Assembly: GCA_030428345.1 (NCBI GenBank)
Contig: JAUIBM010000001.1
Span: forward strand, 1 to 35,111
Direction of reading: 5' to 3'
DNA: 35,111 bases
DNA from: Alphaproteobacteria bacterium
GTDB taxonomy: Bacteria; Pseudomonadota; Alphaproteobacteria; Rhizobiales; Rhizobiaceae
Part shown: one piece after another, positions 1 to 19,498 of the stretch
How the letters are laid out: each line of letters begins with the position of its first letter
Position numbering within the stretch: position 1 is the stretch's first letter
Notes under the pieces: model-generated
Databases searched by the model: none
What the model was told of the DNA's origin: nothing
The model's input: only the letters and a program-made list of their open reading frames with translations
Made by a program: the position numbers and the translations under genes

Positions 1-188
1 AGGAAGAAGTCCTCGTACCATTGCAGCGAATAGCCCGGCACCGGCAGCGTCAGGATGTTGCCGGAGGAGAACGACAGCGGAAAGATCACCAGAAGCGGCG
101 CGACAAGGAATGCCAGCACGATCCAGGCGAATATGGCGACGAGAATGCGGGTCAATTTGCCCTCACGCCTGAATCGAATTGCCGGCAT
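1..188 (-). CDS. ABC transporter permease, PotC-like (N-terminal part only; the gene runs off the left edge)
   Basis: Hand translation of the minus strand from the ATG at 188..186 gives MPAIRFRREGKLTRILVAIFAWIVLAFLVAPLLVIFPLSFSSGNILTLPVPGYSLQWYEDFF. This is a typical N-terminus for the second permease of spermidine/putrescine-type importers. It overlaps the 3' end of the upstream permease by 26 nt. It is absent from the ORF track because it is truncated. Confidence 0.7.
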   Translation of the reverse strand, partial: MPAIRFRREGKLTRILVAIFAWIVLAFLVAPLLVIFPLSFSSGNILTLPVPGYSLQWYEDFF

Positions 189-1341
189 TGGGGATAAGGC
201 GCCGCGCGATGACGATGATCGTTCCGGTCATCGCCAGCAGCAGCAGCGACAGCGCCGCCACCATGCCGAAATTGATCGACTGGTTGGTGAAGAAGGCGAT
301 GTAGTAGCTGACCATCTGGTCCTGCAGGCCGCCCACCAGCGCCGGCGTCACATAGAAGCCGACCGACAGCATGAAGACCATCGCCGCCCCCGCCGCCACG
401 CCGGGAAAGGTCAGCGGCAGATAGACCGACAGGAATTGCCGCCAGGGCGGCGCGCCGAGCGAGGCGGCGGCGCGCAGATATTGCGGCCCCTGGCGTTTCA
501 TCACGCTGTAGAGCGGCAGGATCTGGAAGGGCAGCAGCACATGCACCATCGCCACATAGACGGCGAAGCGGGTGAAGATCAGCTGCGCCGGCTCTTGCAG
601 GATGCCGACGCCCACCAACGCGTTGTTGATGGGGCCCTCGGTCTGCAGAAGGATGAACCATGCCGTTGTGCGCACCAGGATCGAGGTCCAGAAAGGCACG
701 AGCACCAGAAGCATCGCATAGCTCGCCGCCCGGTCGGAAAGGGTGGAGATGTAATAGGCGGTCGGATAGGCCAGCACCGCGCAGATCAGCGTCACCCAGA
801 TGCTGATCCAGAAGGTGCGGGTGAAGAGGTCGATGAAGATCGCCCGGTCGGCGGGGACGCGTTCCAGCGTCCCTTCCGGGCTCACCTCGATGTCGAGGGC
901 GCGCAGCAGATAGCTGGCGGTGACCGGGCTCGAATTGGTCTTGATCAGTTTCCACAGCTCCGGATTGCCCCATTCGGGGATCGCGGCGGGAAGGCTGGCG
1001 GAATAGGGCGCCTCCAGGCTGGCCGCCTTGCGGCGCGTCTGCAGCAGGATGGTGCGCGTTCCATTCAGTTCGAAGTTCAGGCGGCGCGTCATGGCGCCGA
1101 AGGTCATGCCGTTGCTTTCGCCGGCAATGTCCTCGACCAGCGCGCGGAACGCGGCTTCCGGCGGCAGGTCCTTCCCGTCCCATTGGTCGAGCACCATGGC
1201 CGTTCGCGGCAGCGCCGCCGTGACTTCAGGGTTCTCCACCGCCTTGATCATGGTGTAGCCGATCGGCAGGATGAACCCCGCGACCACCAGCAGGAGCAGC
1301 GGGGCGATCAACAGCCAGGAAGTGCGGGTTTTCGGGGACAT
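163..1341 (-). CDS. ABC transporter permease, PotB-like, with a long periplasmic loop after TM1
   Basis: 392-aa ORF with an ATG start. The N-terminal TM segment is SWLLIAPLLLLVVAGFILPI. A block of about 150 aa that looks soluble follows, then five hydrophobic segments and an EAA-like loop (LRAAASLGAPPWRQFLSVYLPLT). It lies in an operon with a family-1 binding protein. Confidence 0.9.
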   Translation of the reverse strand: MSPKTRTSWLLIAPLLLLVVAGFILPIGYTMIKAVENPEVTAALPRTAMVLDQWDGKDLPPEAAFRALVEDIAGESNGMTFGAMTRRLNFELNGTRTILLQTRRKAASLEAPYSASLPAAIPEWGNPELWKLIKTNSSPVTASYLLRALDIEVSPEGTLERVPADRAIFIDLFTRTFWISIWVTLICAVLAYPTAYYISTLSDRAASYAMLLVLVPFWTSILVRTTAWFILLQTEGPINNALVGVGILQEPAQLIFTRFAVYVAMVHVLLPFQILPLYSVMKRQGPQYLRAAASLGAPPWRQFLSVYLPLTFPGVAAGAAMVFMLSVGFYVTPALVGGLQDQMVSYYIAFFTNQSINFGMVAALSLLLLAMTGTIIVIARRLIPNAGNSIQA

Positions 1342-1359
1342 TGTGTTCCGGGTCGAAAT

Positions 1360-1391
1360 GCCGGCATCCGGAAGCTTCCCCGGATGCCGGC
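1360..1391 (-). repeat. Intercistronic perfect 12-bp stem-loop between the binding-protein gene and the permease gene
   Basis: GCCGGCATCCGG (1360..1371), an 8-nt loop, then CCGGATGCCGGC (1380..1391). The arms are exact reverse complements. The structure sits in the 59-nt gap between the stop at 1401 and the start at 1341. Confidence 0.7.
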
Positions 1392-1400
1392 TTCTTCAGG

Positions 1401-2432
1401 TTACTGGGCGGCCCAGGCCGTGAACTTGGCTTCGAGTTCGTCGCCGTGCTCGATCCAGAATTCGGTGTTGATGAACAGGCCCTCGGCGCTGTGGTTGAGC
1501 ACCATTCCGGGGTTGGCCTTCTGGATTTCCGGATCCTCGTTCACCGCCTTGTTGGCCGGCGAGATCGGCCAGATCGCGGCCTGCTTGCGCAGCGGGCCTT
1601 CGTCCGTGATCCAGTTGATCAGCTTCATCGCCTCGTCCTTCATCGGCGAGCCTTCAACCACGGCCCAGTAGTCGATGGAGTAGAACAGCGTGTCCCAGTC
1701 GAGCTGGTACTTGCTGCCTTCCGAATTCGCCTTGATCACGCGGCCGGTATAGCCGAATGCGTAGTCGACCTCGCCGCTGCCGACCAGCTGCAGCGGCTGT
1801 GCGCCAGACTTCCACCAGACGATCTGGTCCTTGATGGTGTCGAGCTTGACGAATGCGCGCGCCACGCCCTCGTCGGTCGCCAGGACCTTGTAGACGTCTT
1901 CCTTGGCGACGCCGTCTGCCAACAGCGCGGCTTCAAGCGTCATCTTCGGTCCGGTGCGCATGGAGCGCTTGCCGGGGAACTTTTCGACGTCGAAGAAATC
2001 GGCCACCGTCTTGGGGCCTTCGGGATGGCGAACGGTGTCGTAGAATACCGCCGCGCCCCAGCCGGTGCCGCCGATGCCGCATTCGCTGGTCGCGCCTTCG
2101 ATGAACTTGTCGCGGTTGATCACCGAATAGTCGATCTTGGCGAAGATGCCGTCCTCGCAGCCGCGCACCAGTTCGGGCGCTTCCACCATGATGGCGTCAT
2201 AGGTCACGTTGCCGGTCTGGACCATGCCGTAGATCTTGGCCATTTCGCCATTGTAGACGTCGTCGGCGACCGGCGTGCCAGTGGCCTCCTGATAGCCCTT
2301 GAAAAGCGCTTCGCGGGCGCTGTCCTGATAGCCTCCCCCGAAGCCGACGATCGTCAGATCGCGCGCCATCGAGGCGGACGCCATCGCAACCGCCTTTGCG
2401 GCCGTTGCGGTCAGTACCGAGAGTATTCTCAT
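1401..2432 (-). CDS. ABC transporter periplasmic substrate-binding protein (family 1, PotD/PotF-like)
   Basis: The ORF is 1401..2465. GAGGGG lies 9 nt upstream of the ATG at 2432 (MRILSVLTATAAKAVAMASASMA, a signal-peptide-like N-terminus). Alternative starts are 2438 and 2465. The mature part (DLTIVGFGGGYQDSAREALFKGYQEATG...) resembles polyamine/opine-type binding proteins. Confidence 0.88.
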   Translation of the reverse strand: MRILSVLTATAAKAVAMASASMARDLTIVGFGGGYQDSAREALFKGYQEATGTPVADDVYNGEMAKIYGMVQTGNVTYDAIMVEAPELVRGCEDGIFAKIDYSVINRDKFIEGATSECGIGGTGWGAAVFYDTVRHPEGPKTVADFFDVEKFPGKRSMRTGPKMTLEAALLADGVAKEDVYKVLATDEGVARAFVKLDTIKDQIVWWKSGAQPLQLVGSGEVDYAFGYTGRVIKANSEGSKYQLDWDTLFYSIDYWAVVEGSPMKDEAMKLINWITDEGPLRKQAAIWPISPANKAVNEDPEIQKANPGMVLNHSAEGLFINTEFWIEHGDELEAKFTAWAAQ

Positions 2433-2477
2433 CGTCATATTCCCCTCTTTGCTGGGTCGTTTCATGGTTGGGTCTTC

Positions 2478-3308
2478 TCAGGCGGACACGGTGTTGGCGA
2501 CACCGTCTTTCCCCCCGGTCCGGCTGTCGGCAACGCCCGTGAGTTCTCGCGTTGCCGAACCGATTGACTGGAGCAGGCCTTCAAGCCGGCCTTCCCATTG
2601 CGGCAGCGCTGCGCGCAGATCCGGCGATGCGGGAAGGTCGCTAAGCGCGGTCATGACCAGCGCCGAACACAGATTGGATGGCAGGAAGCTCGCCGCCGAG
2701 CCCGCATTCAGCGCAGCGAGCGCGGCCAGCGTGTTGGCGCCCGTGCCGCTGATGACGACGGCCTCGACCGCGGATGCGTCGATCTTGCGGGCCGCCGCGC
2801 CGACATCGTCCGGCGTCAGTTCATAGGCGCGGAATTCGTCAGAGATCGAATGGGTCTGCACGACTTCCAGCCCGGCGTCGGCCCAATAGGCCTGCGCATG
2901 CGCGGTGAGTTCCTTGGGATAGGGCGAGACGAGCGCGATCCGCCGGGCGCCCATCGCGGTAAGCACGGCCAGGATCGCCAGGCTCGCGGTCACGACCGGC
3001 GCCTGCGCCTGCGCCGACAAGTCCCGGCACATGCGCGTGTCGCCGGATGCAAGCAGCTTGTAGGAGGAGCCGGTCATGGCGATCGACAGGGCGTCGAGCT
3101 TCAGCGAGCCGAAGGCCTTGATCGTCTCGCCATAGGCCTTCAGGTAGAGATCGTTGCGCTCATACAGCGTCGTGTTGGGAAACACGGGAAGGCGGGCATA
3201 GTGGCACGCGGCCGCGACCGGCAGCAGCAGGCGCATTTCCGGTTCGACGGCTGGGTTGGCCGGCGGGACGATCGTGCCGATGCGGCAGGCGGTGTGGATG
3301 TCAGCCAT
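2478..3308 (-). CDS. Asp/Glu racemase superfamily protein, arylmalonate-decarboxylase / maleate cis-trans isomerase-like
   Basis: The N-terminal motif RIGTIVPPANPAVEPE and the overall length of about 276 aa fit the AMDase/maleate-isomerase family. The chosen start is ATGGCTGAC at 3308, preceded by GGAGGG. The track start at 3377 would overlap the upstream gene by 77 nt. Confidence 0.75.
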   Translation of the reverse strand: MADIHTACRIGTIVPPANPAVEPEMRLLLPVAAACHYARLPVFPNTTLYERNDLYLKAYGETIKAFGSLKLDALSIAMTGSSYKLLASGDTRMCRDLSAQAQAPVVTASLAILAVLTAMGARRIALVSPYPKELTAHAQAYWADAGLEVVQTHSISDEFRAYELTPDDVGAAARKIDASAVEAVVISGTGANTLAALAALNAGSAASFLPSNLCSALVMTALSDLPASPDLRAALPQWEGRLEGLLQSIGSATRELTGVADSRTGGKDGVANTVSA

Positions 3309-4494
3309 TGCGCCCTCCATTGCCCACCATCGCCTCCGGCACGCCGGCCAGCATGTCGAGCATCGCCTGCTTGGCAAGGAATTCGCTCGCCGTCTCGGGC
3401 GACGCGCTGATGGCGGCGATGCGCTTCACGCGTTCGCTGCCCGTGCCGATATTCTCGTCGGTGCGCGGCAGGAGCTGCAGGCGCGTCACGCGCTCGCGCT
3501 CCCATGCGGCGCGGTCCAGATGCGTGATGTCGCCGCTCCGGGAAAAGGCGATCGCCGCCGCGGCATAGGCGAATGCGTCGTGCAGCCCGGCATTGAGGTT
3601 CATTCCGCCCTTGGTGTTGGTCAGGTGCAAGGCGTCTCCGGCGAGATAGACCCGCCCGACGCTTGCCGCCAGCGCCCGCCGCCGGCGGGCGGAGTAGACG
3701 TCGCGCGCCGCGACCTCCGGCAGGATCTGTTCGATCGCGAGAAGATTGGAAAGCCGCGAGACGATCCAGGCGTCGCTCATCGCCTCGCTCTCCGGAATGC
3801 CGGCGGGAACCCGCACGACGATACGCCAGCAATCATGCATTTCCAGCAGGCTGCAGGTATCCTCGCCCGCATGCAGATAGGCGATGCCCGAAAGGCCGGG
3901 CAGGTACTGGCGCATGTCGGCATCCGCATAGAGCCGCAGCGCCATCCCGGGATAGGGCTTCTCGACATAGCCGATCCGCACGGCTTCCCTGGCGGCCGAT
4001 TGCGCGCCGTCGCAGCCGAACAGCACCGCGCCGCGGTGCTCCTGGCCGTCCGCCGTCCTGGCGGTGACACCGGATTCGTCCTGGGTCAGCGAAGCCAGTT
4101 CCGCGCCGAACTCGAGCCGGCCGCCTTCCTGAACGAAAAGATCGCGCATCAGCGTCGTCAGTTCGCCCTGTTCGTAGTGCATGCGGTACGGATTGCGCAC
4201 GCGATCCTTGAGGAGCGAGAAGTCGAGCTGCGACAGCAATTCGCCATCGGGCGCGCGGTATTGCACGCAATCGATCCGCGTGCCCTTCGTCTGCATGGAC
4301 TCCAGCACGCCGCATGTTTCCAGCAGGTCCAGCGTCGAGGCGTGGAAGGTCGACGCCTTGGATTGCAGGTTCACCGTGTCGCGCTTTTCCAGCACCGTAA
4401 CCGCAATTCCGGCGCGCAGCAGCATCAGGGCCAGCGTCAGGCCAACCGGCCCCGCGCCTGTCACGATCATCTGCTGATTGTCTGTCTGGCTCAT
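3301..4494 (-). CDS. FAD-dependent aromatic-ring/heterocycle monooxygenase (PHBH fold, UbiH/MhpA-like)
   Basis: It has a GxGxxG motif (MIVTGAGPVGLTLAL), a GD motif (RVYLAGDALHLTNTKGGMNLNAGLHDA) and a DG-type motif (FGCDGAQSAAR). The start is placed at the ATG at 4494 (MSQTDNQQ), with AGGA 5 nt upstream. The track start at 4509 is a TTG. Confidence 0.85.
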   Translation of the reverse strand: MSQTDNQQMIVTGAGPVGLTLALMLLRAGIAVTVLEKRDTVNLQSKASTFHASTLDLLETCGVLESMQTKGTRIDCVQYRAPDGELLSQLDFSLLKDRVRNPYRMHYEQGELTTLMRDLFVQEGGRLEFGAELASLTQDESGVTARTADGQEHRGAVLFGCDGAQSAAREAVRIGYVEKPYPGMALRLYADADMRQYLPGLSGIAYLHAGEDTCSLLEMHDCWRIVVRVPAGIPESEAMSDAWIVSRLSNLLAIEQILPEVAARDVYSARRRRALAASVGRVYLAGDALHLTNTKGGMNLNAGLHDAFAYAAAAIAFSRSGDITHLDRAAWERERVTRLQLLPRTDENIGTGSERVKRIAAISASPETASEFLAKQAMLDMLAGVPEAMVGNGGRNG

Positions 4495-4521
4495 GCCTGT
4501 CCTGCTCAAAACGATGGCCTC

Positions 4522-4549
4522 ATGCTAGCGGCCGACATAAAAGTGTCAA
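4522..4549 (-). promoter_or_regulatory. Candidate sigma70-type promoter of the monooxygenase-isomerase-ABC operon
   Basis: On the minus strand the -35 is TTGACA (rc of 4544..4549). A 16-nt spacer follows, then the -10 TAGCAT (rc of 4522..4527). The -10 lies about 28 nt upstream of the ATG at 4494. The -35 is embedded in the palindrome AAGTGTCAACACTT. Confidence 0.4.
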
Positions 4550-4554
4550 CACTT
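4541..4554. promoter_or_regulatory. Candidate GntR-type operator, site 1 (6-2-6 perfect palindrome AAGTGT-CA-ACACTT)
   Basis: AAGTGTCAACACTT. The arms AAGTGT and ACACTT are exact reverse complements. It shares the TGTCAAC core with three other sites in the island's promoter regions. Confidence 0.5.
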
Positions 4555-4634
4555 GATTTGATCTGACTCGAAGAATCTCGCAAAAAGTCGGAATTTTCAG
4601 GCATCTTGGTACGGTATGGCTCGTGCTTTGGGCA

Positions 4635-4648
4635 TAGTGTCAACATTG
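4635..4648. promoter_or_regulatory. Candidate GntR-type operator, site 2
   Basis: TAGTGTCAACATTG, in the same orientation as site 1 with centres 94 bp apart. It lies in the non-coding gap between the isochorismatase-family gene and the monooxygenase gene. Confidence 0.4.
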
Positions 4649-4666
4649 TGTGCAATGTCCGGGCAG

Positions 4667-4698
4667 GGGCGGGGCTAGGCCCGCCCATCCGGGGCGGG
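4667..4698 (-). terminator. GC-rich alternative hairpins spanning the stop codon of the isochorismatase-family gene (possible terminator or processing structure)
   Basis: GGGCGGG (4667..4673), CCCGCCC (4680..4686) and GGGCGGG (4692..4698). The central arm can pair with either flank. There is no clear U-tract. Confidence 0.25.
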
Positions 4699-5400
4699 CA
4701 TTTGCAGGTTTTCCAGATAGGCCGCCACCTCGTCGGTCGGGATCACGTCGGCATATTTGCAGTTGAGATCGAAGAGGTTCATCGCATGGCTCGCCTCGAA
4801 GCGGTCGAAGGCGGTTTCCTCGGGGATGACGGTCTTGAAGTTGAAGGAATAGGCGTCGACCGCCGTCGCCCTCAGGCAGCCTGACGTGGTGCATCCGGTA
4901 AGGATCAGCGTGTCGACGTCGAGGAAGTTCAACTGGCTCATGAACAAGGTGCCGAAGAACGCCGAGGGCTTGCGCTTGCCGATCAGAGCGTCCTGGGGGC
5001 GCGGCGCCAGGGGAGAAACGGTCTGCGTGGCGTGGCTGCCCTCGATCGAGGTCTTCTCCGTGCCGCGGTGGTTCTTGCCGACCTGCACGCCGCTGTCGAT
5101 CATGTCGGGCCTGCGTTCCGACTGGGTGTAGAAGATCGGAATGTCCCTGGCCCTGGCGATGTGCATCAGCCGCTCGATGTGGGGGACGGCCTTCCAGCCC
5201 ACCTCGCCGCAATGGGTGCGGTACTGCTTCAGCCCTTCCTCATGGCTCTGGCCCGGCTCGTCGCCGCAGAAATTGTACTGCACGTCGATGATGAACAGGG
5301 CAGGGCGCTTTCCGAACCCGCCCCGCTTGCCGTAGCCGGCGAGCCGATAGATTTCCTTGTCCTTGTCGGTCAGGAACTTGTCCCAGATGCGTTCGCTCAT
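4675..5400 (-). CDS. Isochorismatase-family cysteine hydrolase (maleamate amidohydrolase / N-carbamoylsarcosine amidase-like half-amidase)
   Basis: The internal ATG at 5400 (MSERIWDKF) is preceded by AGGA. The product is 241 aa. Family triad candidates are D in LFIIDVQ, K in IGKRKPSAF and C in LTGCTTSGCLRAT. The upstream part of the track ORF (4675..5874) is Arg/Gly-rich junk that overlaps the next gene. Confidence 0.85.
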   Translation of the reverse strand: MSERIWDKFLTDKDKEIYRLAGYGKRGGFGKRPALFIIDVQYNFCGDEPGQSHEEGLKQYRTHCGEVGWKAVPHIERLMHIARARDIPIFYTQSERRPDMIDSGVQVGKNHRGTEKTSIEGSHATQTVSPLAPRPQDALIGKRKPSAFFGTLFMSQLNFLDVDTLILTGCTTSGCLRATAVDAYSFNFKTVIPEETAFDRFEASHAMNLFDLNCKYADVIPTDEVAAYLENLQMPAPDGRA

Positions 5401-5411
5401 GTGTGGTCCTT

Positions 5412-6770
5412 TCAGGCTGCGCGGTGCAGGTAGCGGCCGCTGGCGCCGATCCCGGGCGCGAGCGCGCCGTCCTCGACGAGCACCTCGCCGCGCAGGATCG
5501 TGTGGGTTATCGCGCCGCGAAAGCTCATGCCGTCGTAGGGCGAGTAGTCGGAATGGGAAGGATAGGCGGCGGCGTCGATCCGGGTCGTGCCGTCCGGGTC
5601 GACAATGGCGAAATCCGCGTCGAAGCCGGGCGCGATGCGGCCCTTGCCGCGCACCGAATAGAGATCGGCGACATTGCTCGACGTCGCGGCGGCGAGCGTT
5701 TCCAGCGGAATTCCGCGCTTGCGCCAGCCCTCTTCCAGCAGCACCGGCAGGATCTGGGCGATGCCCGGAAAGCCGGCCGTGGCCTGCCAGATATCGGGGC
5801 CCTTGGTCGAGCGCTTGCGCGGCACGTGGTCCGAGCCGATCGTGGAGATTTCGCCCGTGCGAACGCCTTCCCACAATCCGTCGATGTCGGACTGGCTGCG
5901 CAGCGGCGGGTTCACCTTGCCCAGATTACCGATCGCGCTGTCTCGGCTGAGCGACAGATAGTGGATGCAGGTCTCGACATGGATCGGCGCGCGGCCCGGA
6001 TGGCGCAGCTTGCGCACCAGATCGAGGCTTTCCACCGCCGACATGTGGACGATGTTGACCGGGCAGTTGGTCTTCTCGCCGAAATAGCACACCCGAAAGA
6101 CGTTCTCGGTCTCCAGGAAGCCGGGCGACTGTTCGTCCCAGACCCTGAGATCGTCGCGGCCGGCGGCCTTCAGCGGCTCGCGCAGCACCGGGATCACCTC
6201 GGTGTTCTCGCAATGCACGCCGACAACGCCATTGCGTATCTTCGCGCCGGCCTGCAGGGCGGCGAACAGCAGGCCGTCATCCACCTCGCCAAAACCTTTC
6301 GCCGCGCCCGTCGCGCCCTTGTACATCAGATAGACCTTGACGGAGGTGACGCCGAAGCGCTGCGACAGCTCGGCCAGTTCCTGCACGTGGCGGCGCGAGG
6401 TGACGCCGAAATGGAAGCCGAAATCGATCGCCGAACGAGCGAGCGCGGCGTCGCGCCAGGGGCCGGTCGCCGCGCCCAGATCGTCGCTGCGCCAGAAGCT
6501 GAACAGCCCGGTAACCCCGCCCAGAAGCGCGGTGCGGCTCTCCGTGTCCCAGTCGTTTTCCTTGTCGCCGAAGCCGATATGCGTATGCGGGTCGATCACC
6601 CCCGGCATGACCAGCCTGTCGGTGCAATCGATGATGCGCCGCGCCTCGGCCCGCTCTTCGGGCGCAAGGATGGCGGCGATGCGGCCGTTGCGGATGGCGA
6701 GCGAGCCGCGTCGCATGCCCTCGCCCGGAAAGACGATTTCGCCATTGTGGAGAACCAGATCGTAACTCAT
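5412..6770 (-). CDS. Cyclic amidohydrolase of the dihydropyrimidinase / hydantoinase / imidase family
   Basis: All metal-centre motifs can be seen: DPHTH, the carboxylated-Lys context VKVYLMYK, VHCEN, IVHMS and GSDH. The product is 452 aa. The start ATG overlaps the stop of the aconitase-like gene (ATGA at 6767..6770). Confidence 0.9.
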   Translation of the reverse strand: MSYDLVLHNGEIVFPGEGMRRGSLAIRNGRIAAILAPEERAEARRIIDCTDRLVMPGVIDPHTHIGFGDKENDWDTESRTALLGGVTGLFSFWRSDDLGAATGPWRDAALARSAIDFGFHFGVTSRRHVQELAELSQRFGVTSVKVYLMYKGATGAAKGFGEVDDGLLFAALQAGAKIRNGVVGVHCENTEVIPVLREPLKAAGRDDLRVWDEQSPGFLETENVFRVCYFGEKTNCPVNIVHMSAVESLDLVRKLRHPGRAPIHVETCIHYLSLSRDSAIGNLGKVNPPLRSQSDIDGLWEGVRTGEISTIGSDHVPRKRSTKGPDIWQATAGFPGIAQILPVLLEEGWRKRGIPLETLAAATSSNVADLYSVRGKGRIAPGFDADFAIVDPDGTTRIDAAAYPSHSDYSPYDGMSFRGAITHTILRGEVLVEDGALAPGIGASGRYLHRAA

Positions 6771-9463
6771 GCAGCAGCATCCAGCTTGTTCAACAGGGCG
6801 GCGAACATGCCGCCGGAAAGAAGAAGATCGCGCTCGGCCTCGCTCGCGATGTCGACACGGGCGCTGAAGCGGCGCGGCTCGCCCGCTTCGTCATGCGCCT
6901 CCACGCTTACGGCCTCTCCCGCCATGACGGCGGCGTGAAGGTTGCCAAATCGGAAGCGCTCGAAGCCGGTAAGGCCGAGCGTGGCGGCCGACTCGTCCTT
7001 GGCGAAGACCAGCGGCAGAATGCCGACGCCGATCAGGTTGGAGCGATGGATCCGCTCGAAGCTTTCCGCCAGTGCGGCGCGAACGCCGAGCAGCTTCGGC
7101 CCCTTCGCCGCCCAGTCGCGGCTGGAGCCCATGCCGTAATCGCGCCCGCCGAGCACGATCGCGGGCGCGCCCTGCCGCCTGAACGCCATCGCCGCCTCGT
7201 AGATCGCTACAGGCGGGGCATCGGGTGACAGGCGGGTGAAGCCGCCTTCGGTTCCCGGCGCGAGAAGGTTTTTCAGCCGCTGATTGGCGAAGGTGATCCG
7301 GGCCATGAATTCATGATTGCCGCGCCGCTGGGTCACGGCGTTGAAATCCTTCGGCTTGACGCCCTGTGCGACGAGATATTGCCCGGCCAGCGTGTCCGGC
7401 GAGATTTCCCCGCTGGGTGTGATGTGGTCGGTCGTCAGCGAGTCGCCGACCATCAGCAGGGTGCGGGCGTCCTCCAGACTGTCCGGCAGGGCGGGGCTGT
7501 CGAGGTCGAAGAACGGCGGCGGGCAGACATAGGTCGAGGCGGGATCCCATTGGAAGCGCCGGCCTGTCGGGGCCTCGAGCCGCCGCCACAATTCGGCGCC
7601 GTCGAACAGCCTTGCATAGCTTTTCTGGAACTGTTCGGGCTGCAGGCTCTCGCGCACAAGCTGTTCGAGCTCGGCCGGGTCGGGCCAGATGTCGCGCAGA
7701 TGAACCGGCTGGCCATCGCTGCCCGTCCCCAGCGGCTCTGCCTCGACATCGATGTCGATCCGCCCGGCAAGCGCGAAGGCTACCACCAGCGGCGGGGAAG
7801 CCAGAAAATTGGCGCGGCAGCTGCGATGGATCCGGCCCTCGAAATTGCGATTGCCCGAAAGGACCGCCGCCGCGACCAGATCGTGCTTGGAGATCGCCTC
7901 GGCCAGCTCCGGGCGGATCGGACCTGACTTGCCCGAGCAGGTCGTGCAGCCGAAGCCGACGATATGAAAGCCGAGCTGCTCCAGCGGGGCCAGAAGCCCG
8001 GCCTTCGCCAGGTAGTCCTCCACGAGGCGCGAACCCGGCGCCAGCGACGTCTTGACCCAGCCCGGCGTCCTGAGCCCGAGGCGGACCGCGTTGCGCGCCA
8101 GCAGGCCGGCGCCGAGCATCACGGCCGGGTTGGACGTGTTGGTGCAGGAGGTGATCGCCGCGACCATGATCGAGCCGTGGCGCAGGGGCTGCTCGAAGCC
8201 TTCGACCGCAACCGCCTTGTCGCTCTCGCCCTGCGGCACGCCGAAGCCGCCTTGCGCCACCGGGGTGCTCAGGCTTTCGCAGAAGACCGACTTGATGTCC
8301 GTCAGCGGAACACGGTCCTGTGGCCGGCGCGGACCCGCCAGGCACGGGGCGATGGCGCCGAGATCGATGGAGACGATCTCGGAATAGTCCGCCTCGACGC
8401 CATGGTCCTCGACATAGAGCCCCGCCGCGCGGGCATGGGCTTCCACCAGGGCTACATGCCCTGCGGGCCGGCCGGACTGGTGCAGATAGTCGATGGTGCG
8501 CGCATCGATTGCGAAATAGCCGATGGTGGCGCCATATTCCGGCGCCATGTTTGCGATCGTCGCCCGCTCGGGAACCGACAACCCGGCGACGCCCTCGCCG
8601 AAGAACTCCACGAAGTCGCCGACCACGCCGACCTTGCGTAGCCGCTCGGTAATGGTGAGGACCATGTCGGTGGTCGTCGATCCGGCCGGCAGCCTGCCGG
8701 TCAGGCGAACGCCGACGACGCGCGGAATGCGCACGACATGGCGCTGCCCGAGCGCCACCGCCTCGCCCTCTATGCCGCCCACCCCCCAGGCCAGCAGGCC
8801 AATGCCGTTCACCATCGGGGTGTGGCTGTCGCAGCCGATCACGAATTCGGGCGCGGCGATCGCGCCATGGCCGGGCAGGGTGATCCGCTCCACCAGCATG
8901 GCCAGCTTTTCCAGATGCACCTGGTGGATGATTCCCGCGCCGGGCGGCACGACCTGCAGCTTGGCGAAGGCCTGCTGCGCCCATTTGAAGAAGCTGTAGC
9001 GCTCGCCATTGCGCCGGTATTCTTCCGCGATGTTGCGTTCGCGCGCATCGGCGCGCCCGGCGACATCGACAATCAGCGAATGATCCACCACCAGCGCGAT
9101 CGGCACCCGCGGCTCGACGCTGTCGGCGCCTGCGCCCGAAGCATGCGCCGCGTCGCGCGCCGCCGCCAGATCCATCAGCACCGGCAATCCGCTGGAATCG
9201 GGCAGGATCAGGCGCGATACCATGAGCGGCGCGGAGAGCGGCGGCGTCTCGCCGGTCCATCCGGCGATCTGCGCGGCGATGTCTGCGGTGTCATGGCCGA
9301 GCAGGTCCTGCCGGCTGAGATTTTCCAGCACCACCTTTAGGCAGGACGGCAGGGGCCTGCTGCGTGCTGCGGTGAGGGCGTCCAGATCGATGCACGACAT
9401 GGCCGAGCCGTCCGGCAGCGTGAAGCCGCGAAGTGGGGATAGGGCTGGTCGGGTTGCGCGCAC
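6767..9463 (-). CDS. AcnA/IRP-type aconitase-family hydratase (paralog; substrate unknown)
   Basis: Motifs seen are LPSCLKVVLENL, VVDHSLIVD, GCDSHTPMVNGIGLLAWGVGGIEGEA, ITSCTNTSNP, GCTTCSGKSG, SGNRNFEGRIH and GMGSSRDWAAKG. The start is uncertain. The GTG at 9463 gives the same N-terminal spacing to the LPxS motif as the E. coli AcnA sequence I recall from memory. Alternatives are the ATG at 9400 and the TTG at 9523 (track start, but it coincides with a TTGACA -35-like hexamer). Confidence 0.88.
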   Translation of the reverse strand: MRATRPALSPLRGFTLPDGSAMSCIDLDALTAARSRPLPSCLKVVLENLSRQDLLGHDTADIAAQIAGWTGETPPLSAPLMVSRLILPDSSGLPVLMDLAAARDAAHASGAGADSVEPRVPIALVVDHSLIVDVAGRADARERNIAEEYRRNGERYSFFKWAQQAFAKLQVVPPGAGIIHQVHLEKLAMLVERITLPGHGAIAAPEFVIGCDSHTPMVNGIGLLAWGVGGIEGEAVALGQRHVVRIPRVVGVRLTGRLPAGSTTTDMVLTITERLRKVGVVGDFVEFFGEGVAGLSVPERATIANMAPEYGATIGYFAIDARTIDYLHQSGRPAGHVALVEAHARAAGLYVEDHGVEADYSEIVSIDLGAIAPCLAGPRRPQDRVPLTDIKSVFCESLSTPVAQGGFGVPQGESDKAVAVEGFEQPLRHGSIMVAAITSCTNTSNPAVMLGAGLLARNAVRLGLRTPGWVKTSLAPGSRLVEDYLAKAGLLAPLEQLGFHIVGFGCTTCSGKSGPIRPELAEAISKHDLVAAAVLSGNRNFEGRIHRSCRANFLASPPLVVAFALAGRIDIDVEAEPLGTGSDGQPVHLRDIWPDPAELEQLVRESLQPEQFQKSYARLFDGAELWRRLEAPTGRRFQWDPASTYVCPPPFFDLDSPALPDSLEDARTLLMVGDSLTTDHITPSGEISPDTLAGQYLVAQGVKPKDFNAVTQRRGNHEFMARITFANQRLKNLLAPGTEGGFTRLSPDAPPVAIYEAAMAFRRQGAPAIVLGGRDYGMGSSRDWAAKGPKLLGVRAALAESFERIHRSNLIGVGILPLVFAKDESAATLGLTGFERFRFGNLHAAVMAGEAVSVEAHDEAGEPRRFSARVDIASEAERDLLLSGGMFAALLNKLDAAA

Positions 9464-9495
9464 GTGCCTTCGGTCGCCTCCATTTTGCGGGGCGG

Positions 9496-9523
9496 AGATT
9501 ACATCGAAGCGCCAAACTGTCAA
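9496..9523 (-). promoter_or_regulatory. Candidate promoter of the aconitase-amidohydrolase-amidase operon
   Basis: On the minus strand: TTGACA (rc of 9518..9523), a 16-nt spacer, then TAATCT (rc of 9496..9501). The -35 again lies inside a TGTCAAC-core motif. Confidence 0.35.
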
Positions 9524-9528
9524 CTCTT
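9515..9528. promoter_or_regulatory. Candidate GntR-type operator, site 3
   Basis: AACTGTCAACTCTT in the gntR/aconitase divergent region. It shares the TGTCAAC(A/T)(C/T)T core with sites 1, 2 and 4. Confidence 0.45.
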
Positions 9529-9542
9529 TGGGTGGTTCGCGC

Positions 9543-9571
9543 TTGCCTCAGGCTGTGAACTCGGGTATTTA
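9543..9571 (+). promoter_or_regulatory. Candidate gntR promoter
   Basis: TTGCCT (9543..9548), a 17-nt spacer, then TATTTA (9566..9571). This would place operator site 4 downstream of the transcription start. Confidence 0.3.
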
Positions 9572-9597
9572 GCTGAAAATCGGACGCAGCCTGATCA

Positions 9598-9609
9598 AAG
9601 TGTTGACAG
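9598..9609. promoter_or_regulatory. Candidate GntR-type operator, site 4 (inverted relative to site 3)
   Basis: AAGTGTTGACAG. With its flanks, its reverse complement reads CTGTCAACACTTTG, against CTGTCAACTCTTTG at site 3 (13 of 14 identical). It ends 5 nt before the gntR ATG. Confidence 0.45.
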
Positions 9610-9613
9610 GAAG

Positions 9614-10291
9614 ATGGATTTGCAAGCACACGATCAAGCCCCTCTGGTGAACCAGATCTTCGACAGGATATTCGAATTGTTGCTCTCGGGCGAGATACCG
9701 CTCGGCGGCACCTTGAACGAGGCGACGCTGGCTGCGCGCTTCTCGGTGAGCCGCGGTCCTGTGCGCGAAGCGATCAAGATGTTCCAGGGGCGCGGCCTCG
9801 TCGTCAAGGAGCCCTATCTCAAGGCGCATGTGGTGGAATTGTCGGTTTCCGACATGATCCAGATCTTCCAGCTGCGCGAGGCCGTGGAATGCATGTCCAT
9901 CCGCCTCGCCACCCGGAACATGAGCGACGCGGAAATCGACCATCTGCTGTCCGAATTCACGATCGCCCGCACGGGCGAGAACATCGACGTCCTGGACGTT
10001 CACGTCCGCATCGCCGAAGGCTGCGGCAATGAGCGCATCCGCGCCTTGCTCTGCGACGAGCTTTACCATCTGCTGCGGCTCTACAGGGCCCGCTCCGGCG
10101 GCAAGCCGGGCCGGCGCAAGGACGCTTATTCCGAACACTGGCAGATCTTGCGGGCGATGAAGGCGCGCGACGCCGATCTGGCTGAATCATTGATGCGCGC
10201 ACACATCATGCGCGCCACCCGGTCCCTGGAAGAGGTCCTGGCCAACACGACGGCGGACCAGCAGGGCAGCGCAAACAGGGAGGCGGGATGA
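9614..10291 (+). CDS. GntR-family (FadR/FCD-type) transcriptional regulator
   Basis: The wHTH region reads LNEATLAARFSVSRGPVREAIKMFQGRGLVV, followed by an all-helical C-terminal domain of about 150 aa. The ATG at 9614 is preceded by AGGAAG. The stop overlaps the next start (ATGA). Confidence 0.9.
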   Translation: MDLQAHDQAPLVNQIFDRIFELLLSGEIPLGGTLNEATLAARFSVSRGPVREAIKMFQGRGLVVKEPYLKAHVVELSVSDMIQIFQLREAVECMSIRLATRNMSDAEIDHLLSEFTIARTGENIDVLDVHVRIAEGCGNERIRALLCDELYHLLRLYRARSGGKPGRRKDAYSEHWQILRAMKARDADLAESLMRAHIMRATRSLEEVLANTTADQQGSANREAG

Positions 10292-11214
10292 CCATACAGA
10301 CCCAGATTGCCATACGGCCGACGCAACGCATGCGGGAACTCATCGCGGGCGCCGATCTCATCGTCTCTCCCGGAGTCTATGACGGCTACAGCGTGCGCCT
10401 TGTCGAGAAGATGGGCTTCAAGACGGCCTGCACCACCGGGGCGGGGCTTTCCAACTCGCGCCTGGGCGTGCCCGATATCGGCGTCATGGGCCTCAGCGAC
10501 AATGTCGAAGCCTGCCGCGTGATGGCGCGATCGGTGTCGATCCCGGTCATGGCCGACGCCGATACCGGCTATGGCAATCCGGCGAACATGCTGCACACCG
10601 TTCGCATGTTCGAGGATGCGGGCGTTGCCGGGATCAACATCGAGGATCAGGTCAGCCCCAAGCGCTGCGGCCACATGCAGGGCAAGGACGTGGTCGACAT
10701 GCGGGAAATGGCCCGCAAGATCGAGGCGGCCTGCGACGCGCGCAAGGACGACGACTTCGTCATTCTGGCGCGCACCGACGCGATCGCGATCGAGGGTCTT
10801 GAGGGCGCGATACGCCGCGCGCAGCTCTACGCCAAGGCCGGCGCCGACCTCATTTTCGCCGACGCCATCGGCGGCGAGGACCAGATCAAGGCGCTGGTGG
10901 ACGCCGTGCCGGTTCCCGTGTCGGTCAACATGGGCTTCGGCATCCGCAACCGCCCGACCACGCCGCTCATTCCCCTGACGCGGCTCGCCGAAATCGGCGT
11001 CCGGCGCGTCACCTTGCCCAGATTGCTGCCGGCCGCCGCGATCCTGGCGATGGAAAACGCCCTGTCCATCCTCAAGCAGTCGATCCTGACCGGCGAGATC
11101 GTCCACCGGCCCGACCTTCTGGCCGGCATCGACGACATCTGGGAATTGATGGGACAGCCCGAATTCCGCCTGCAGGAAGCCCGCTACAACAATCTGGAAG
11201 ACCTCGACCTGTAA
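10288..11214 (+). CDS. Isocitrate lyase / PEP mutase superfamily lyase (2-methylisocitrate lyase / 2,3-dimethylmalate lyase-like)
   Basis: Motifs seen are SPGVYDGYS, DADTGYG, GINIEDQ and the diagnostic KRCGH loop (VSPKRCGHMQGK), plus ILARTDA. The product is 308 aa. Confidence 0.88.
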   Translation: MTIQTQIAIRPTQRMRELIAGADLIVSPGVYDGYSVRLVEKMGFKTACTTGAGLSNSRLGVPDIGVMGLSDNVEACRVMARSVSIPVMADADTGYGNPANMLHTVRMFEDAGVAGINIEDQVSPKRCGHMQGKDVVDMREMARKIEAACDARKDDDFVILARTDAIAIEGLEGAIRRAQLYAKAGADLIFADAIGGEDQIKALVDAVPVPVSVNMGFGIRNRPTTPLIPLTRLAEIGVRRVTLPRLLPAAAILAMENALSILKQSILTGEIVHRPDLLAGIDDIWELMGQPEFRLQEARYNNLEDLDL

Positions 11215-11366
11215 CCGCCCTTGCGGCGGGTTCGGCGTGCTGTCCCAGCCATTTCCGGGATCGCGGTGGATAATCCCGATGCGGCGTGCGTTCGGTGCTG
11301 TAACGGCCGCGCGCGCCGTCGTATCGTCCCCGCGGTCCGGCATGGCCGGCGAAAACGGACAGGGAC

Positions 11367-12584
11367 ATGAGCCAGAGCGCACCCAGGATGATCGTTGCCC
11401 GGCGCGAGGTCGACACGACGCCGCGCCGGCTCGCCGGATTTCTCAGCCTGGCGGATTTCGAGCGCGCGGCGAAGCGCCGGCTGCCGCGACAGATCTACGG
11501 CTATTACGCCAACGCCGCCGAAACCGGGCAATCGCTGACCGGCAATCTGGCCGCCTTCCGCAATTACGATCTGGTGCCGCGCGTCCTGGCGGATGTTTCG
11601 ACGCGCTCGGCGAGCGCCAGCCTGTTCGGCAAGCGCTATTCCGCGCCCTTCGGCATTGCGCCGATGGGCCTTTCCGGGCTTGCGACCTTCGACGGCGAGA
11701 TTGTGCTGGCGCGCGCGGCGAAGGCGGCGAACATTCCCTCCATCGTCAGCGCCACATCGCTGACCCCGCTTGAGCGCGTTGCCTCGCAGGGCGGCGCGCG
11801 CTGGTTCCAGGCCTATCTTCCGGGCGAGGACGACCGCATCGAGGCCATGGTCGATCGCGTCGCGGCGGCCGGCTACGACACCTTCGTGCTGACGGCCGAC
11901 GTGCCGGTAGCCGCCAATGCCGAGAACCATGTCCGCGTCGGTTTCAGTTCACCGCTGCGCCCGTCGCTGCGGCTGGCCTGGGACGGGCTGATGCGGCCGC
12001 GCTGGCTGGCCGACACCTGGTTCAGGACCCTGCTCAAGAAGGGTGTTCCGCATTTCGAGAACATGGACGCCTTTCGCGGGCCGCCGATCCTGGCGCGCAA
12101 TGTCGTGCGGGCGCTGGGCGCGCGCGACCAGCTTGCCTGGCGTCATCTGGCGCTGATCCGCAAGCGCTGGTCCGGCCGGCTGGTGGTCAAGGGCGTCCTG
12201 TCGGCGGCGGACGCGCTTCTGGCGCGCGAGCATGGCGCGGACGGGGTCATCGTCTCCAACCACGGCGGGCGGCAGCTGGACGGCGCGCCGCCCTCGCTTT
12301 CCGCGCTGCCCGCGATCGCCGAGGTCGCGGGCGACATGACGGTGATGCTGGATGGCGGGGTCCGGCGCGGCTCCGACGTGTTCAAGGCGCTGGCGCTCGG
12401 CGCGGACTTCGTCTTCGTCGGCCGGCCGTTCCTCTATGCCGCCGCCATCGGCGGGGAAGCGGGCGTCGCGCGCGCGATCGCCCTTCTTTCCTCCGAGATC
12501 AACCGCAACATGGCGCTGCTGGGCGTCACCCGCATCGAGGACATTGGCGGCGAGCACATCGAGCGCTCGCAGTTTCCGCGGTGA
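11367..12584 (+). CDS. FMN-dependent alpha-hydroxy-acid dehydrogenase/oxidase (LldD / glycolate oxidase / mandelate dehydrogenase family)
   Basis: Family motifs are present: PFGIAPMG, VVKGV, IVSNHGGRQLDG, DGGVRRGSDVFKALALGA. The product is 405 aa. Confidence 0.9.
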   Translation: MSQSAPRMIVARREVDTTPRRLAGFLSLADFERAAKRRLPRQIYGYYANAAETGQSLTGNLAAFRNYDLVPRVLADVSTRSASASLFGKRYSAPFGIAPMGLSGLATFDGEIVLARAAKAANIPSIVSATSLTPLERVASQGGARWFQAYLPGEDDRIEAMVDRVAAAGYDTFVLTADVPVAANAENHVRVGFSSPLRPSLRLAWDGLMRPRWLADTWFRTLLKKGVPHFENMDAFRGPPILARNVVRALGARDQLAWRHLALIRKRWSGRLVVKGVLSAADALLAREHGADGVIVSNHGGRQLDGAPPSLSALPAIAEVAGDMTVMLDGGVRRGSDVFKALALGADFVFVGRPFLYAAAIGGEAGVARAIALLSSEINRNMALLGVTRIEDIGGEHIERSQFPR

Positions 12585-12617: not shown

Positions 12618-13811
12618 TCAGGTGACGGCGGAGCGGGCCATGTATCGCGCGTCGTCCCACAATCTTTCACGCATGATCCGCTCCAGGATGTGCGCGGCCT
12701 CCAGCACGTCGCTCTCGCGCAGATAGAGCGGCGTGAAGCCGAACCGCATGATGTCGGGCGCGCGGAAATCGCCGATCACGCCATGCGCGATCAGCGCCTG
12801 CATCGCGGCATAGCCATGCTCGAACCGGAACGAGACCTGGCTGCCGCGCCGGGCCGGATCGCGCGGGCTGGCGAGCGCCAGTGCGGGGCATCTCCTTTCC
12901 ACCTGCTCGATGAAAAGCTGCGACAATTCGATCGACTTGCGCCGCACATCGGCCAGATCGACCTCGTCCCACACCTCGAGCGCCGCTTCCAGCGCGATCA
13001 TGCCCAGGATCGGCGGGGTGCCGACCCGCATGCGCTCTATGCCGGGAGCCGGGCGGTACTGCGTCTCGAAGCTGAACGGCGCCTCGTGGCCGAACCAGCC
13101 GGCGAGCGAGGGCTCTGCATGTTCGGCATGCTCCGGGGAGACATGGATGAATGCCGGCGCGCCGGGACCGCCATTGAGATATTTATAGGTGCAGCCGACG
13201 GCGAAATCGGCCTTCGCGCCGGCAAGGTCGACCGGCAGCGCTCCTGCCGAATGGGCGAGGTCCCAGATCGTCAGCGTCCCGGCGCGGTGCGCCTTTTCGG
13301 TGATCGCCGCCATGTCATGCAGGCGTCCGGTGCGGTAGTCGACTTCGGTCAGCATCACGACCGCGGCCGCCTCGTCGATCGCCGCCTCCACCGCTTCGGG
13401 CTCGACGATGCGCAGTTCCAGTCCCTTGCCCAGCAGCCCGACCAGGCCCTGCGCCATGTAGAGATCGGTCGGGAAATTGCCGTTGTCGGAAAGGATGACC
13501 TTGCGGTCCGGGCGCAGCGCCAGCGCGGCGGAAAGGGCTTGGAACACCTTGATCGACAGCGTGTCGCCCATGACCACCGATCCGGCCGGCGCGCCGATCA
13601 GGCGGGCGATCCTGTCGCCCAGCTGGCGCGGCTTGTCGACCCAGCCGGCGCTGTTCCACGCGCGGATGAGTTGCTGGCCCCAATCCTTCTGCATGGTCTG
13701 CGCCACGGCCTGCACCGCCGATTTCGGCAGCGGCCCGAGGGAATTGCCGTCGAGATAGATCACGTCCGCCGGCAGGTCGAAAAAGGCGCGTGTCCTTGCG
13801 AAATCGGTCAT
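12618..13811 (-). CDS. kynU: Kynureninase (PLP-dependent)
   Basis: IYLDGNSLGP is present at the N-terminus. The PLP-lysine context is FAVGCTYKYLNGGPGAPAF, and DLAHSAG is also present. The product is 397 aa. GGGGAA precedes the ATG at 13811. Confidence 0.92.
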   Translation of the reverse strand: MTDFARTRAFFDLPADVIYLDGNSLGPLPKSAVQAVAQTMQKDWGQQLIRAWNSAGWVDKPRQLGDRIARLIGAPAGSVVMGDTLSIKVFQALSAALALRPDRKVILSDNGNFPTDLYMAQGLVGLLGKGLELRIVEPEAVEAAIDEAAAVVMLTEVDYRTGRLHDMAAITEKAHRAGTLTIWDLAHSAGALPVDLAGAKADFAVGCTYKYLNGGPGAPAFIHVSPEHAEHAEPSLAGWFGHEAPFSFETQYRPAPGIERMRVGTPPILGMIALEAALEVWDEVDLADVRRKSIELSQLFIEQVERRCPALALASPRDPARRGSQVSFRFEHGYAAMQALIAHGVIGDFRAPDIMRFGFTPLYLRESDVLEAAHILERIMRERLWDDARYMARSAVT

Positions 13812-13910
13812 CTGATTCCCCGTGTCGGCCGGCCCGGCAATGTTGACCGGCGTGCGATTGAATAATATGTATTCGTATTAAATCAAGTCGGCGAACAGGA
13901 GTACGCGACC

Positions 13911-15720: not shown

Positions 15721-15726
15721 GGCGGG

Positions 15727-16629: not shown

Positions 16630-16653
16630 CCCCATCGCCAGGAATCCCGCACC

Positions 16654-17463: not shown

Positions 17464-17486
17464 ACGAGCGGGGGCAGGGCGCGGCC

Positions 17487-18422: not shown

Positions 18423-18428
18423 GCGGCG

Positions 18429-19475: not shown

Positions 19476-19498
19476 GGGAAATATCGGCCGAGGGGAAA

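Follow-up and report, generated by a model that had tools for sequence, protein, structure and literature searches.

We analyzed a 35,111-nucleotide (nt) stretch of DNA from an alphaproteobacterium of the Rhizobiaceae (contig JAUIBM010000001.1 of assembly GCA_030428345.1; hereafter, the window), which carries an aconitase paralog that we call AcnP, a name that we also use for its clade. AcnP is probably a functional [4Fe-4S] hydro-lyase of a distinct AcnA/IRP subfamily, which would serve not as the aconitase of the tricarboxylic acid (TCA) cycle but as an accessory catabolic enzyme in a pathway of amide-ring breakdown. It is apparently the core of an undescribed catabolic module. We observed that the catalytic machinery of AcnP is intact, that its pocket residues are changed, that it forms a separate clade, that synteny is conserved, that its gene is translationally coupled, and that a canonical AcnA coexists with it; from these observations we infer the identity of the substrate and the order of the pathway steps. 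The gene lies as follows.

6767..9463, minus strand: AcnP, AcnA/IRP-type [4Fe-4S] hydro-lyase paralog, 898 amino acids (aa), assigned from homolog N termini, Pfam, NCBIfam, the tree, and a structural model

The original prediction, made from the sequence of the window, had placed an open reading frame (ORF) of about 900 aa at 6767..9523 on the minus strand. The gene proved to be genuine, full-length, and of the aconitase type, but its start had to be corrected: TTG at 9523 merely opens the longest ORF, the N termini of homologs favor GTG at 9463, and the database gene call begins at ATG 9400 (877 aa). AcnP matched the Pfam families Aconitase (E value, 1.8e-138) and Aconitase_C (E value, 2.6e-33) and scored 1058.8 bits against TIGR01341, the NCBIfam AcnA equivalog, above the cutoff of 945. 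Both the Pfam domains and an AlphaFold model indicate the four-domain, monomeric AcnA/IRP fold. The model (mean predicted local distance difference test score, 89.2; predicted template modeling score, 0.90) gave template modeling (TM) scores of 0.95 to the bacterial AcnA 9A4J, 0.92 to the closed cytosolic aconitase 2B3X, and 0.58 to RNA-bound IRP1.

The active-site motifs DH, DSH, SCTNTSNP, GCTTCSG, NRNFEGR, and SSRDW, noted in the original prediction, are all present and are invariant in the 23 clade members that we compared. Invariance in 23/23 extends to C440, C506, C509, S780, D127, H128, H180, D212, H214, and E309, and further to the Asp-Ser-His triad, Asn305, Asn538, Arg539, Arg544, Asp679, Arg713, Arg714, and Ser780-Ser781-Arg782; all four substrate Arg positions are kept as well. 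Judged from these sequences, AcnP is an enzyme under purifying selection and not a relic. The clade-wide conservation of catalytic residues and the confident closed-form model thus support the earlier suggestion of an active Fe-S dehydratase.

We then asked how AcnP relates to other AcnA-type proteins. The best 119 database matches, which reach down to 53% identity and come from Alpha- and Betaproteobacteria, all carry the signatures R..[LM]PDSSG, GC[TM]TC[SAG]GKSG, and G[CG]DSHT, represented in AcnP by Pro88 (PDSSG), Ser510 and Lys512 (CSGKSG), and Cys211 (GCDSHT). The first canonical AcnA sequence appeared at rank 120. A library clustered at 50% identity contained a single representative of the clade, which scored 1282 bits, and the next match scored 878 bits. 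A maximum-likelihood tree of 95 sequences, with support from the Shimodaira-Hasegawa-like approximate likelihood ratio test (SH-aLRT), recovered the AcnP clade as monophyletic (SH-aLRT, 100) and apart from AcnD (SH-aLRT, 100); E. coli AcnA and the genome's own canonical AcnA, located on contig C489, formed a separate group (SH-aLRT, 99). In the phylogeny, the protein of the window therefore does not group with housekeeping AcnA.

Comparison of alignment columns between the 23 AcnP members and 67 other AcnA/IRP sequences, plus AcnD, yielded exactly two strict clade-defining positions.

Residue 88: Pro in AcnP (23/23), Gln in other AcnA/IRP proteins (58/67; Gln86 of IRP1, Gln72 of the mitochondrial enzyme), His in AcnD
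Residue 512: Lys in AcnP (23/23), Asn in other AcnA/IRP proteins (57/67; Asn507 of E. coli), Met in AcnD

A second tier of changes (F80L, F/Y90S, T91S, T211C/G, T/S207F, I/V510S/G/A, I/V676L, and A684S) mostly replaces a larger residue with a smaller one. Some unusual residues had been pointed out before: CSGKSG in place of CIGNSG is real and diagnostic, but LPSCLKVVLEN varies within the clade and is not. The strongest change, from QDFTG to PDSSG, was absent from that list. We take the substrate contacts of mitochondrial aconitase to be Gln72, Ser166, Ile425, Arg447, Arg452, Arg580, Ser643, and Arg644, with Gln72 and Ile425 presumably on the classical active-site list of this enzyme. This contact set is incomplete in AcnP, where Gln72 corresponds to Pro88 and Ile425 to Ser510 (Gly or Ala in relatives), and the Arg and Ser contacts are kept. 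Across the superfamily, 20 assigned active sites are largely identical, and the Ser base and Cys ligands have been named (PMC8184944). AcnD differs from AcnA in the same two segments, one after the conserved Arg (RVVCHDILG) and the other after the third Cys (ACTTCNGMSG), which supports treating both segments as specificity determinants. Hence the proposal in the original prediction of a changed substrate, as with AcnD, gains support from clade-wide substitutions in AcnD's two divergent segments, and we infer from the alignments that the pocket changes alter specificity.

AcnP resembles housekeeping AcnA (E. coli AcnA; human IRP1/c-aconitase, 2B3X) in being a four-domain monomer of ∼900 aa with the same Cys ligands, catalytic Ser, His, Asp, and Glu residues, and four Arg. 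It differs in forming a separate clade at 44 to 48% identity, in having Pro for the Gln (mitochondrial Gln72, IRP1 Gln86), Ser, Gly, or Ala at the equivalent of Ile425, and Lys for the following Asn, and in being an accessory gene of a catabolic operon in a genome that also has a canonical AcnA. The tree also placed the library representatives P0151, P0157, and P0208 as the sister group of AcnP (SH-aLRT, 96); these have MHDTT[AS] for MQDFTG and keep CIGNSG or CIGNTG, and by their sequences they may be another uncharacterized AcnA-like subfamily.

The genome of the window is a metagenome-assembled genome (MAG) of 665 contigs and 83.8% completeness. Whether it holds another, canonical acnA had been raised as a test, and indeed contig C489 carries a second AcnA-type gene with the canonical LPFSLKVLLENLL, QDFTG, and CIGNSG motifs, whose product is 48% identical to AcnP. 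When 40 relatives were searched, 18 of them from the same genus, the AcnP paralog was found only in the window genome and in G030, and in none of the 18 congeners; nearly all other relatives had a single AcnA at ∼48 to 50% identity. Among 400 evenly sampled genomes of the class, one (G283) carried AcnP, and three further matches at 51 to 52% identity were rejected as canonical AcnAs. All five carrier genomes searched for a second AcnA (the window genome, G030, G283, Roseovarius pelagicus, and Pararhizobium sp. IMCC21322) contain, in addition, an AcnA-type gene of ∼900 aa that scores higher. Hence, acnP is rare and accessory, present in every case in addition to a normal aconitase gene.

A genome scan with peptide patterns that are shared with ordinary AcnA returned almost only canonical AcnAs, a Stappia locus being the sole useful match. 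Locus L022 (G184:C4), from a genome of the same order, has at 8888-11776 an additional AcnA-type gene of another kind, with QDYAG and ACATCVGNGG motifs, which belongs to a further AcnA-like clade. One member of the AcnP clade, P0053 (61% identical, with PDSSG and CSGKSG), comes from a EukProt entry labeled jgi/Tetstr1 (presumably Tetraselmis striata) and probably reflects either contamination with bacterial DNA or a gene acquired from an associated bacterium.

The genes next to acnP carry the argument for a catabolic role. Four of them are central to it.

5412..6770, minus strand: cyclic amidohydrolase of the allantoinase/hydantoinase/dihydroorotase type, 452 aa
4675..5400, minus strand: isochorismatase-family Cys amidase, 241 aa, Pfam PF00857, beginning 11 nt after the amidohydrolase gene
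9632..10291, plus strand: GntR/FCD-family regulator, divergent from acnP, its stop overlapping the start of the lyase gene by 4 nt
10288..11214, plus strand: C-C lyase of the phosphoenolpyruvate (PEP)-mutase/isocitrate lyase (ICL) superfamily, 308 aa, with a KRCGH catalytic loop

As first described, the TGA stop of acnP overlaps the ATG of the hydantoinase-family amidohydrolase gene (ATGA at 6770..6767) and the operon continues into the isochorismatase-family amidase gene. We compared 15 AcnP loci from Alpha- and Betaproteobacteria: the window, R. pelagicus, two Stappia stellulata strains, Sulfitobacter sp. D7, Limibacillus, Salinarimonas, Roseospira, Terricaulis, Pararhizobium sp. IMCC21322, Bosea sp. 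Root483D1, G283, G030, a MAG labeled Betaproteobacteria, and a closely similar metagenome contig. The neighborhood, whose conservation had been named as a test, is conserved in these loci. The amidohydrolase and the isochorismatase-family amidase were linked to AcnP in all 14 loci with enough flank, the lyase in 14 of 15, and the GntR/FCD regulator in most. The Bosea locus was reached from the amidohydrolase side, so the linkage holds in both directions. The 4-nt overlap between the acnP stop and the start of the next gene, for either the amidohydrolase or a SnoaL protein, recurs in most loci, and the amidase is 73 to 88% identical across loci even where AcnP drops to 54%.

By eye, the amidohydrolase keeps all binuclear-metal ligands (HxH, Lys, His, His, and Asp), and its nearest relatives are allantoinase and L-hydantoinase/hydantoinases. 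The amidase stretches with the assigned Asp, Lys, and Cys triad are conserved in the eight orthologs aligned (8/8); the nearest structure is N-carbamoylsarcosine amidase, followed by 4L07 and 3UAO, which we take to be the maleamate amidases Ami and NicF. The lyase is closest to 2-methylisocitrate lyase, petal death protein, and 2,3-dimethylmalate lyase, with 3FA3, presumably the structure of the latter (DML), among its nearest structures. It scored 244.1 bits against the PrpB model TIGR02317, below the cutoff of 354.4. Relative to E. coli PrpB, in which we assume the roles of the substrate residues, it keeps KRCGH, F186, N210, L234, and P236, has Gly for T212 and a variable residue at R241, and carries two conserved Arg-bearing insertions of its own.

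Around this core, the accessory genes vary and form two sets, of which the window has set A.

3301..4509, minus strand: PHBH-fold flavin adenine dinucleotide (FAD) monooxygenase, set A; nearest solved structures, PnpA and HspB
2478..3308, minus strand: AMDase/maleate-isomerase-superfamily protein, set A, assigned from Pfam and alignments
1401..2465, minus strand: SBP_bac_8-family binding protein, assigned from Pfam
163..1341, minus strand: ATP-binding cassette (ABC) permease, assigned from Pfam

Set A consists of the PHBH-type FAD monooxygenase and the AMDase-like protein, to which an aldehyde dehydrogenase and an ABC importer of the SBP_bac_8 type are often added; the arrangement of binding protein and permease at 163..2465 is also found in R. 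pelagicus and Bosea. Three loci contain an Aminotran_3 gene, which was HemL-like in both cases scanned against NCBIfam. Set B consists of a SnoaL/NTF2-like protein, which is usually accompanied by a flavocytochrome-c/TcuA-like flavoprotein, an SDR, and TctABC. The Bosea locus is a mixture of set A and set B genes, and a CobW metallochaperone gene is present in four loci.

The AMDase-like gene had been suggested to encode an enoate isomerase. At the two positions of the catalytic Cys pair of maleate isomerase, which we take to be Cys76 and Cys194 of the Nocardia enzyme, its product has Leu74 and Gly/Thr (VISGTG), as do five orthologs, and its single invariant Cys lies in SN[LI]CSA. With both isomerase cysteines replaced, the enoate-isomerase role is not supported; we rejected the assignment as a maleate cis-trans isomerase, and the gene is present in only some of the loci.

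Two accessory proteins deserve mention in their own right. A RidA-family gene follows the amidase gene in Bosea (L114, 12280-12678). RidA proteins are enamine/imine deaminases, and by analogy this gene gives a hint that the pathway may involve an enamine or imine intermediate. The SnoaL/NTF2-like protein of set B (L005, 12799-13197, and orthologs) matches residues 69 to 179 of PDB entries 9MUA/9MUP ("Tautomerase," 186 aa) with an E value of 1.6e-27; a literature search on 9MUA found no paper and hence no functional lead for this protein.

The pathway that we propose would begin with an imported carboxylated cyclic amide or imide, whose ring would be opened by the binuclear-metal cyclic amidohydrolase. 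The resulting half-amide would be deamidated by the isochorismatase-family Cys amidase to a substituted cis-enoate tri- or tetracarboxylate, i.e., an analogue of aconitate. AcnP would hydrate or isomerize this analogue to the matching 2-hydroxy-3-carboxy acid, which the PrpB/dimethylmalate-lyase-like lyase would cleave into a 2-oxoacid and a carboxylic acid, and the GntR/FCD regulator would control both transcription units. As candidate substrates, we consider tetrapyrrole-derived carboxylated maleimides (hematinic acid), citrazinate-type dihydroxypyridines, hydantoin/ureide rings, and citrate-amide or -imide conjugates. Literature searches on citrazinate/isonicotinate, on hematinic acid/imidase, on aconitase with isochorismatase and hydantoinase, and on active-site residues returned no description of the cluster or clade.

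Several points weigh against this proposal. AcnP lies above the AcnA equivalog cutoff, so it may still have ordinary aconitase activity, and the putative structural roles of its changed residues follow the literature on mitochondrial aconitase. The best structural match of the amidase is a ureide amidase, which would yield an amine and not an enoate. The Roseospira locus has no lyase nearby. The accessory genes are not the same in all loci, so different organisms may start from different entry substrates. NCBIfam scans of the accessory aldehyde dehydrogenase, HemL-like aminotransferase, binding protein, RidA, and FAD_binding_2 proteins pinpointed no substrate.

A more specific version of the proposal, which we hold to be quite unlikely, is that AcnP and the lyase catalyze the last steps of a pathway mineralizing tetrapyrrole-derived carboxylated maleimides or pyrrolinones. 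Candidate compounds would be hematinic acid (3-carboxyethyl-4-methylmaleimide), oxidation products of chlorophyll, heme, or bilins, and porphobilinogen-type pyrroles. Imide hydrolysis and deamidation would give a methyl- or carboxymethyl-substituted cis-homoaconitate, already in the cis form required by an aconitase; the extra substituent would find room among the smaller pocket residues and the new Lys, and hydration followed by the lyase reaction would release pyruvate and glutarate, or 2-oxoglutarate and propionate or succinate. Hematinic acid occurs in leaves at levels similar to those of other chlorophyll catabolites (PMC7318184). A Methylobacterium amidohydrolase is 66% identical. From a strain name and general knowledge, we take the carriers Bosea sp. 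Root483D1, Roseovarius, Stappia, and Sulfitobacter to be plant-root or marine bacteria. The tetrapyrrole version fits these three points as well as the clade member in the Tetstr1 entry and the HemL-like Aminotran_3 genes.

We weighed other explanations for AcnP. It is unlikely, in our view, that AcnP is an ordinary aconitase isozyme, with a cluster compound of the citrazinate, isonicotinate, or tricarballylate type yielding aconitate, citrate, or tricarballylate, with AcnP contributing no more than extra citrate/isocitrate isomerase capacity, and with the lyase acting as isocitrate lyase. Such an enzyme would pass the AcnA equivalog hidden Markov model and conserve all catalytic and Arg residues, as AcnP does, and set B loci have a flavocytochrome-c/TcuA-like dehydrogenase together with TctABC tricarboxylate-type transporters. 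However, every carrier searched already has a canonical AcnA, and the Gln-to-Pro and Asn-to-Lys changes are fixed in the clade at two residues that other AcnA/IRP proteins share almost universally; AcnD differs at both. Moreover, the lyase is more like methylisocitrate and dimethylmalate lyases than like ICL and has its own insertions, and by our reasoning from ring geometry, the opening of citrazinate would give the trans and not the cis isomer.

It appears decidedly improbable that the cluster consists of two separate halves in a coregulated supercluster, in which the amidohydrolase and amidase, with the racemase-like protein and the aminotransferase, would convert a hydantoin or ureide to an amino acid and AcnP and the lyase would form another branch. 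The relationship of the amidohydrolase to allantoinase and L-hydantoinase and of the amidase to N-carbamoylsarcosine amidase is in line with such a division, as are the Aminotran_3 gene in three loci (HemL-like in the two scanned) and the RidA gene in one. So is the AMDase-like protein, whose superfamily presumably includes racemases, among them hydantoin and allantoin racemases. Against it, the acnP stop overlaps the start of the amidohydrolase or SnoaL gene by 4 nt in most loci, and acnP stays together with the amidohydrolase and amidase genes in 14/14 loci, whereas every other partner varies. Besides, we found no conserved dehydrogenase to connect an amino acid with a hydroxy acid.

A variant methylcitrate cycle, with AcnP as an AcnD-type 2-methylcitrate dehydratase and a PrpB-like lyase, is very improbable. 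PrpB is the best family match of the lyase (244 bits), and AcnD, an Fe/S-dependent 2-methylcitrate dehydratase that works with PrpF, sets a precedent for an AcnA-like enzyme encoded beside prpB (PMC5690661). AcnD and AcnP thus both lie next to a PrpB-type lyase gene and differ from AcnA in the same two segments. Yet AcnP scored 717.8 bits against the AcnD model (TIGR02333), half of its cutoff of 1419.85, in a search in which the ordinary AcnAs listed reached at least 754 bits. The two proteins fall in different clades with different signature residues (CHDILG and CNGMSG in AcnD, LPDSSG and CSGKSG in AcnP), and the partners of AcnD are PrpF and PrpC, whereas those of AcnP are amide hydrolases. 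We therefore rejected membership of AcnP in AcnD, since it has RLILPDSSG/GCTTCSGKSG instead of RVVCHDILG/ACTTCNGMSG and no pairing with prpF or prpC. Indeed, none of the 15 loci contains prpC, prpD, prpF, or a citrate-synthase-type gene. The original prediction had stated that no PrpF-type isomerase is present, which holds for the window and the related loci but not for the rest of the genome, in which the sole PrpF match lies on contig C321; PrpD was not found in the genome.

Finally, a nonenzymatic or regulatory relic, for instance, an IRP-like RNA binder, is barely credible, for although AcnA/IRP proteins can moonlight as RNA-binding regulators, the catalytic residues are all invariant in a clade that has diverged to 53% identity, and the model fits the closed enzyme and not the RNA-bound form.

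The proposed role of AcnP in amide-ring breakdown has parallels in known systems. In the nicotinate fermentation of Eubacterium barkeri, reportedly described by Alhapel et al. in 2006, a dimethylmaleate hydratase is followed by 2,3-dimethylmalate lyase. That pathway likewise places an aconitase-superfamily hydratase and a PEP-mutase/ICL-superfamily lyase downstream of an amidohydrolase-type opening of an N-heterocycle. Its hydratase, however, is a two-subunit enzyme of the isopropylmalate isomerase type that acts on a dicarboxylate, whereas AcnP is a monomer of the AcnA type with all the tricarboxylate-binding Arg, and neither the B12 mutase nor the other E. barkeri genes are present with AcnP. 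Cyclic imides are degraded by an imidase and a half-amidase in Blastobacter sp., and maleamate is degraded by the amidases NicF and Ami. These routes share with our proposal the hydrolysis of a ring followed by deamidation of a half-amide to a cis-enedioate, and the amidase of the window matches 4L07 and 3UAO. Their products, maleate and succinate, enter central metabolism via isomerases or hydratases of other families, and we know of no such pathway with an AcnA-type enzyme or an ICL-type lyase.

To our knowledge, AcnD is the only AcnA-type enzyme with a proven noncitrate substrate; AcnP, if the proposal is true, would be the second. The four-gene core (amidohydrolase, Cys amidase, AcnP, and lyase) would then describe a route from an N-heterocycle to central metabolites without an oxygenase in the core. 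Listed AcnP members that have a database name are all called "aconitate hydratase" or "aconitate hydratase AcnA," and given the pocket substitutions, this name is probably misleading for the whole family, which comprises at least 119 clusters at 90% identity. If the substrate is an abundant natural compound such as a tetrapyrrole-derived imide, the module would fill a gap in the cycling of carbon and nitrogen around phototrophs. Because named isolates are among the carriers (Roseovarius pelagicus, Stappia stellulata, Sulfitobacter sp. D7, Pararhizobium sp. IMCC21322, and Bosea sp. Root483D1), the hypothesis is directly testable.

Two intergenic regions of the island have promoter-like features.

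9464..9631, no strand assigned: promoter region separating the divergent genes acnP and gntR; TGTCAAC at 9518-9524 (plus) and 9602-9608 (minus)
4510..4674, no strand assigned: a further promoter-like gap, lying upstream of the unit with the FAD monooxygenase; TGTCAAC at 4544-4550 and 4638-4644

TGTCAAC occurs six times in the window, compared with 1.45 expected; four copies lie in these two gaps, and the motif is also found at 14490-14504. The copies in the gaps sit in a longer repeat resembling (A/G)TGTTGACA(C/G)T, which may be a GntR/FCD operator overlapping -35 elements. A perfect inverted repeat at 4679-4699, GCCCGCCC-CGGAT-GGGCGGGC, covers the final codons of the isochorismatase gene, immediately ahead of the TAG stop, and could form a stem that stabilizes the 3' end or acts as a terminator between the two transcription units.

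The gene immediately downstream of that for the lyase, at 11367-12584, encodes a flavin mononucleotide (FMN)-dependent alpha-hydroxyacid dehydrogenase (LldD-like, below the cutoff). It is followed at 12618-18935 by a kynureninase gene divergent from genes for an ABC importer, an aspartate-dehydrogenase-like protein, an alpha/beta hydrolase, and a MarR regulator. In the loci examined, this kynureninase module adjoins the AcnP island only in the window genome, and we rejected both the FMN dehydrogenase and the module as pathway members because they are absent from all other loci. Farther along, at 19472-20989, a caspase-family (Peptidase_C14) protein with peptidoglycan-binding domains is encoded after a 134-aa ORF without a Pfam match.

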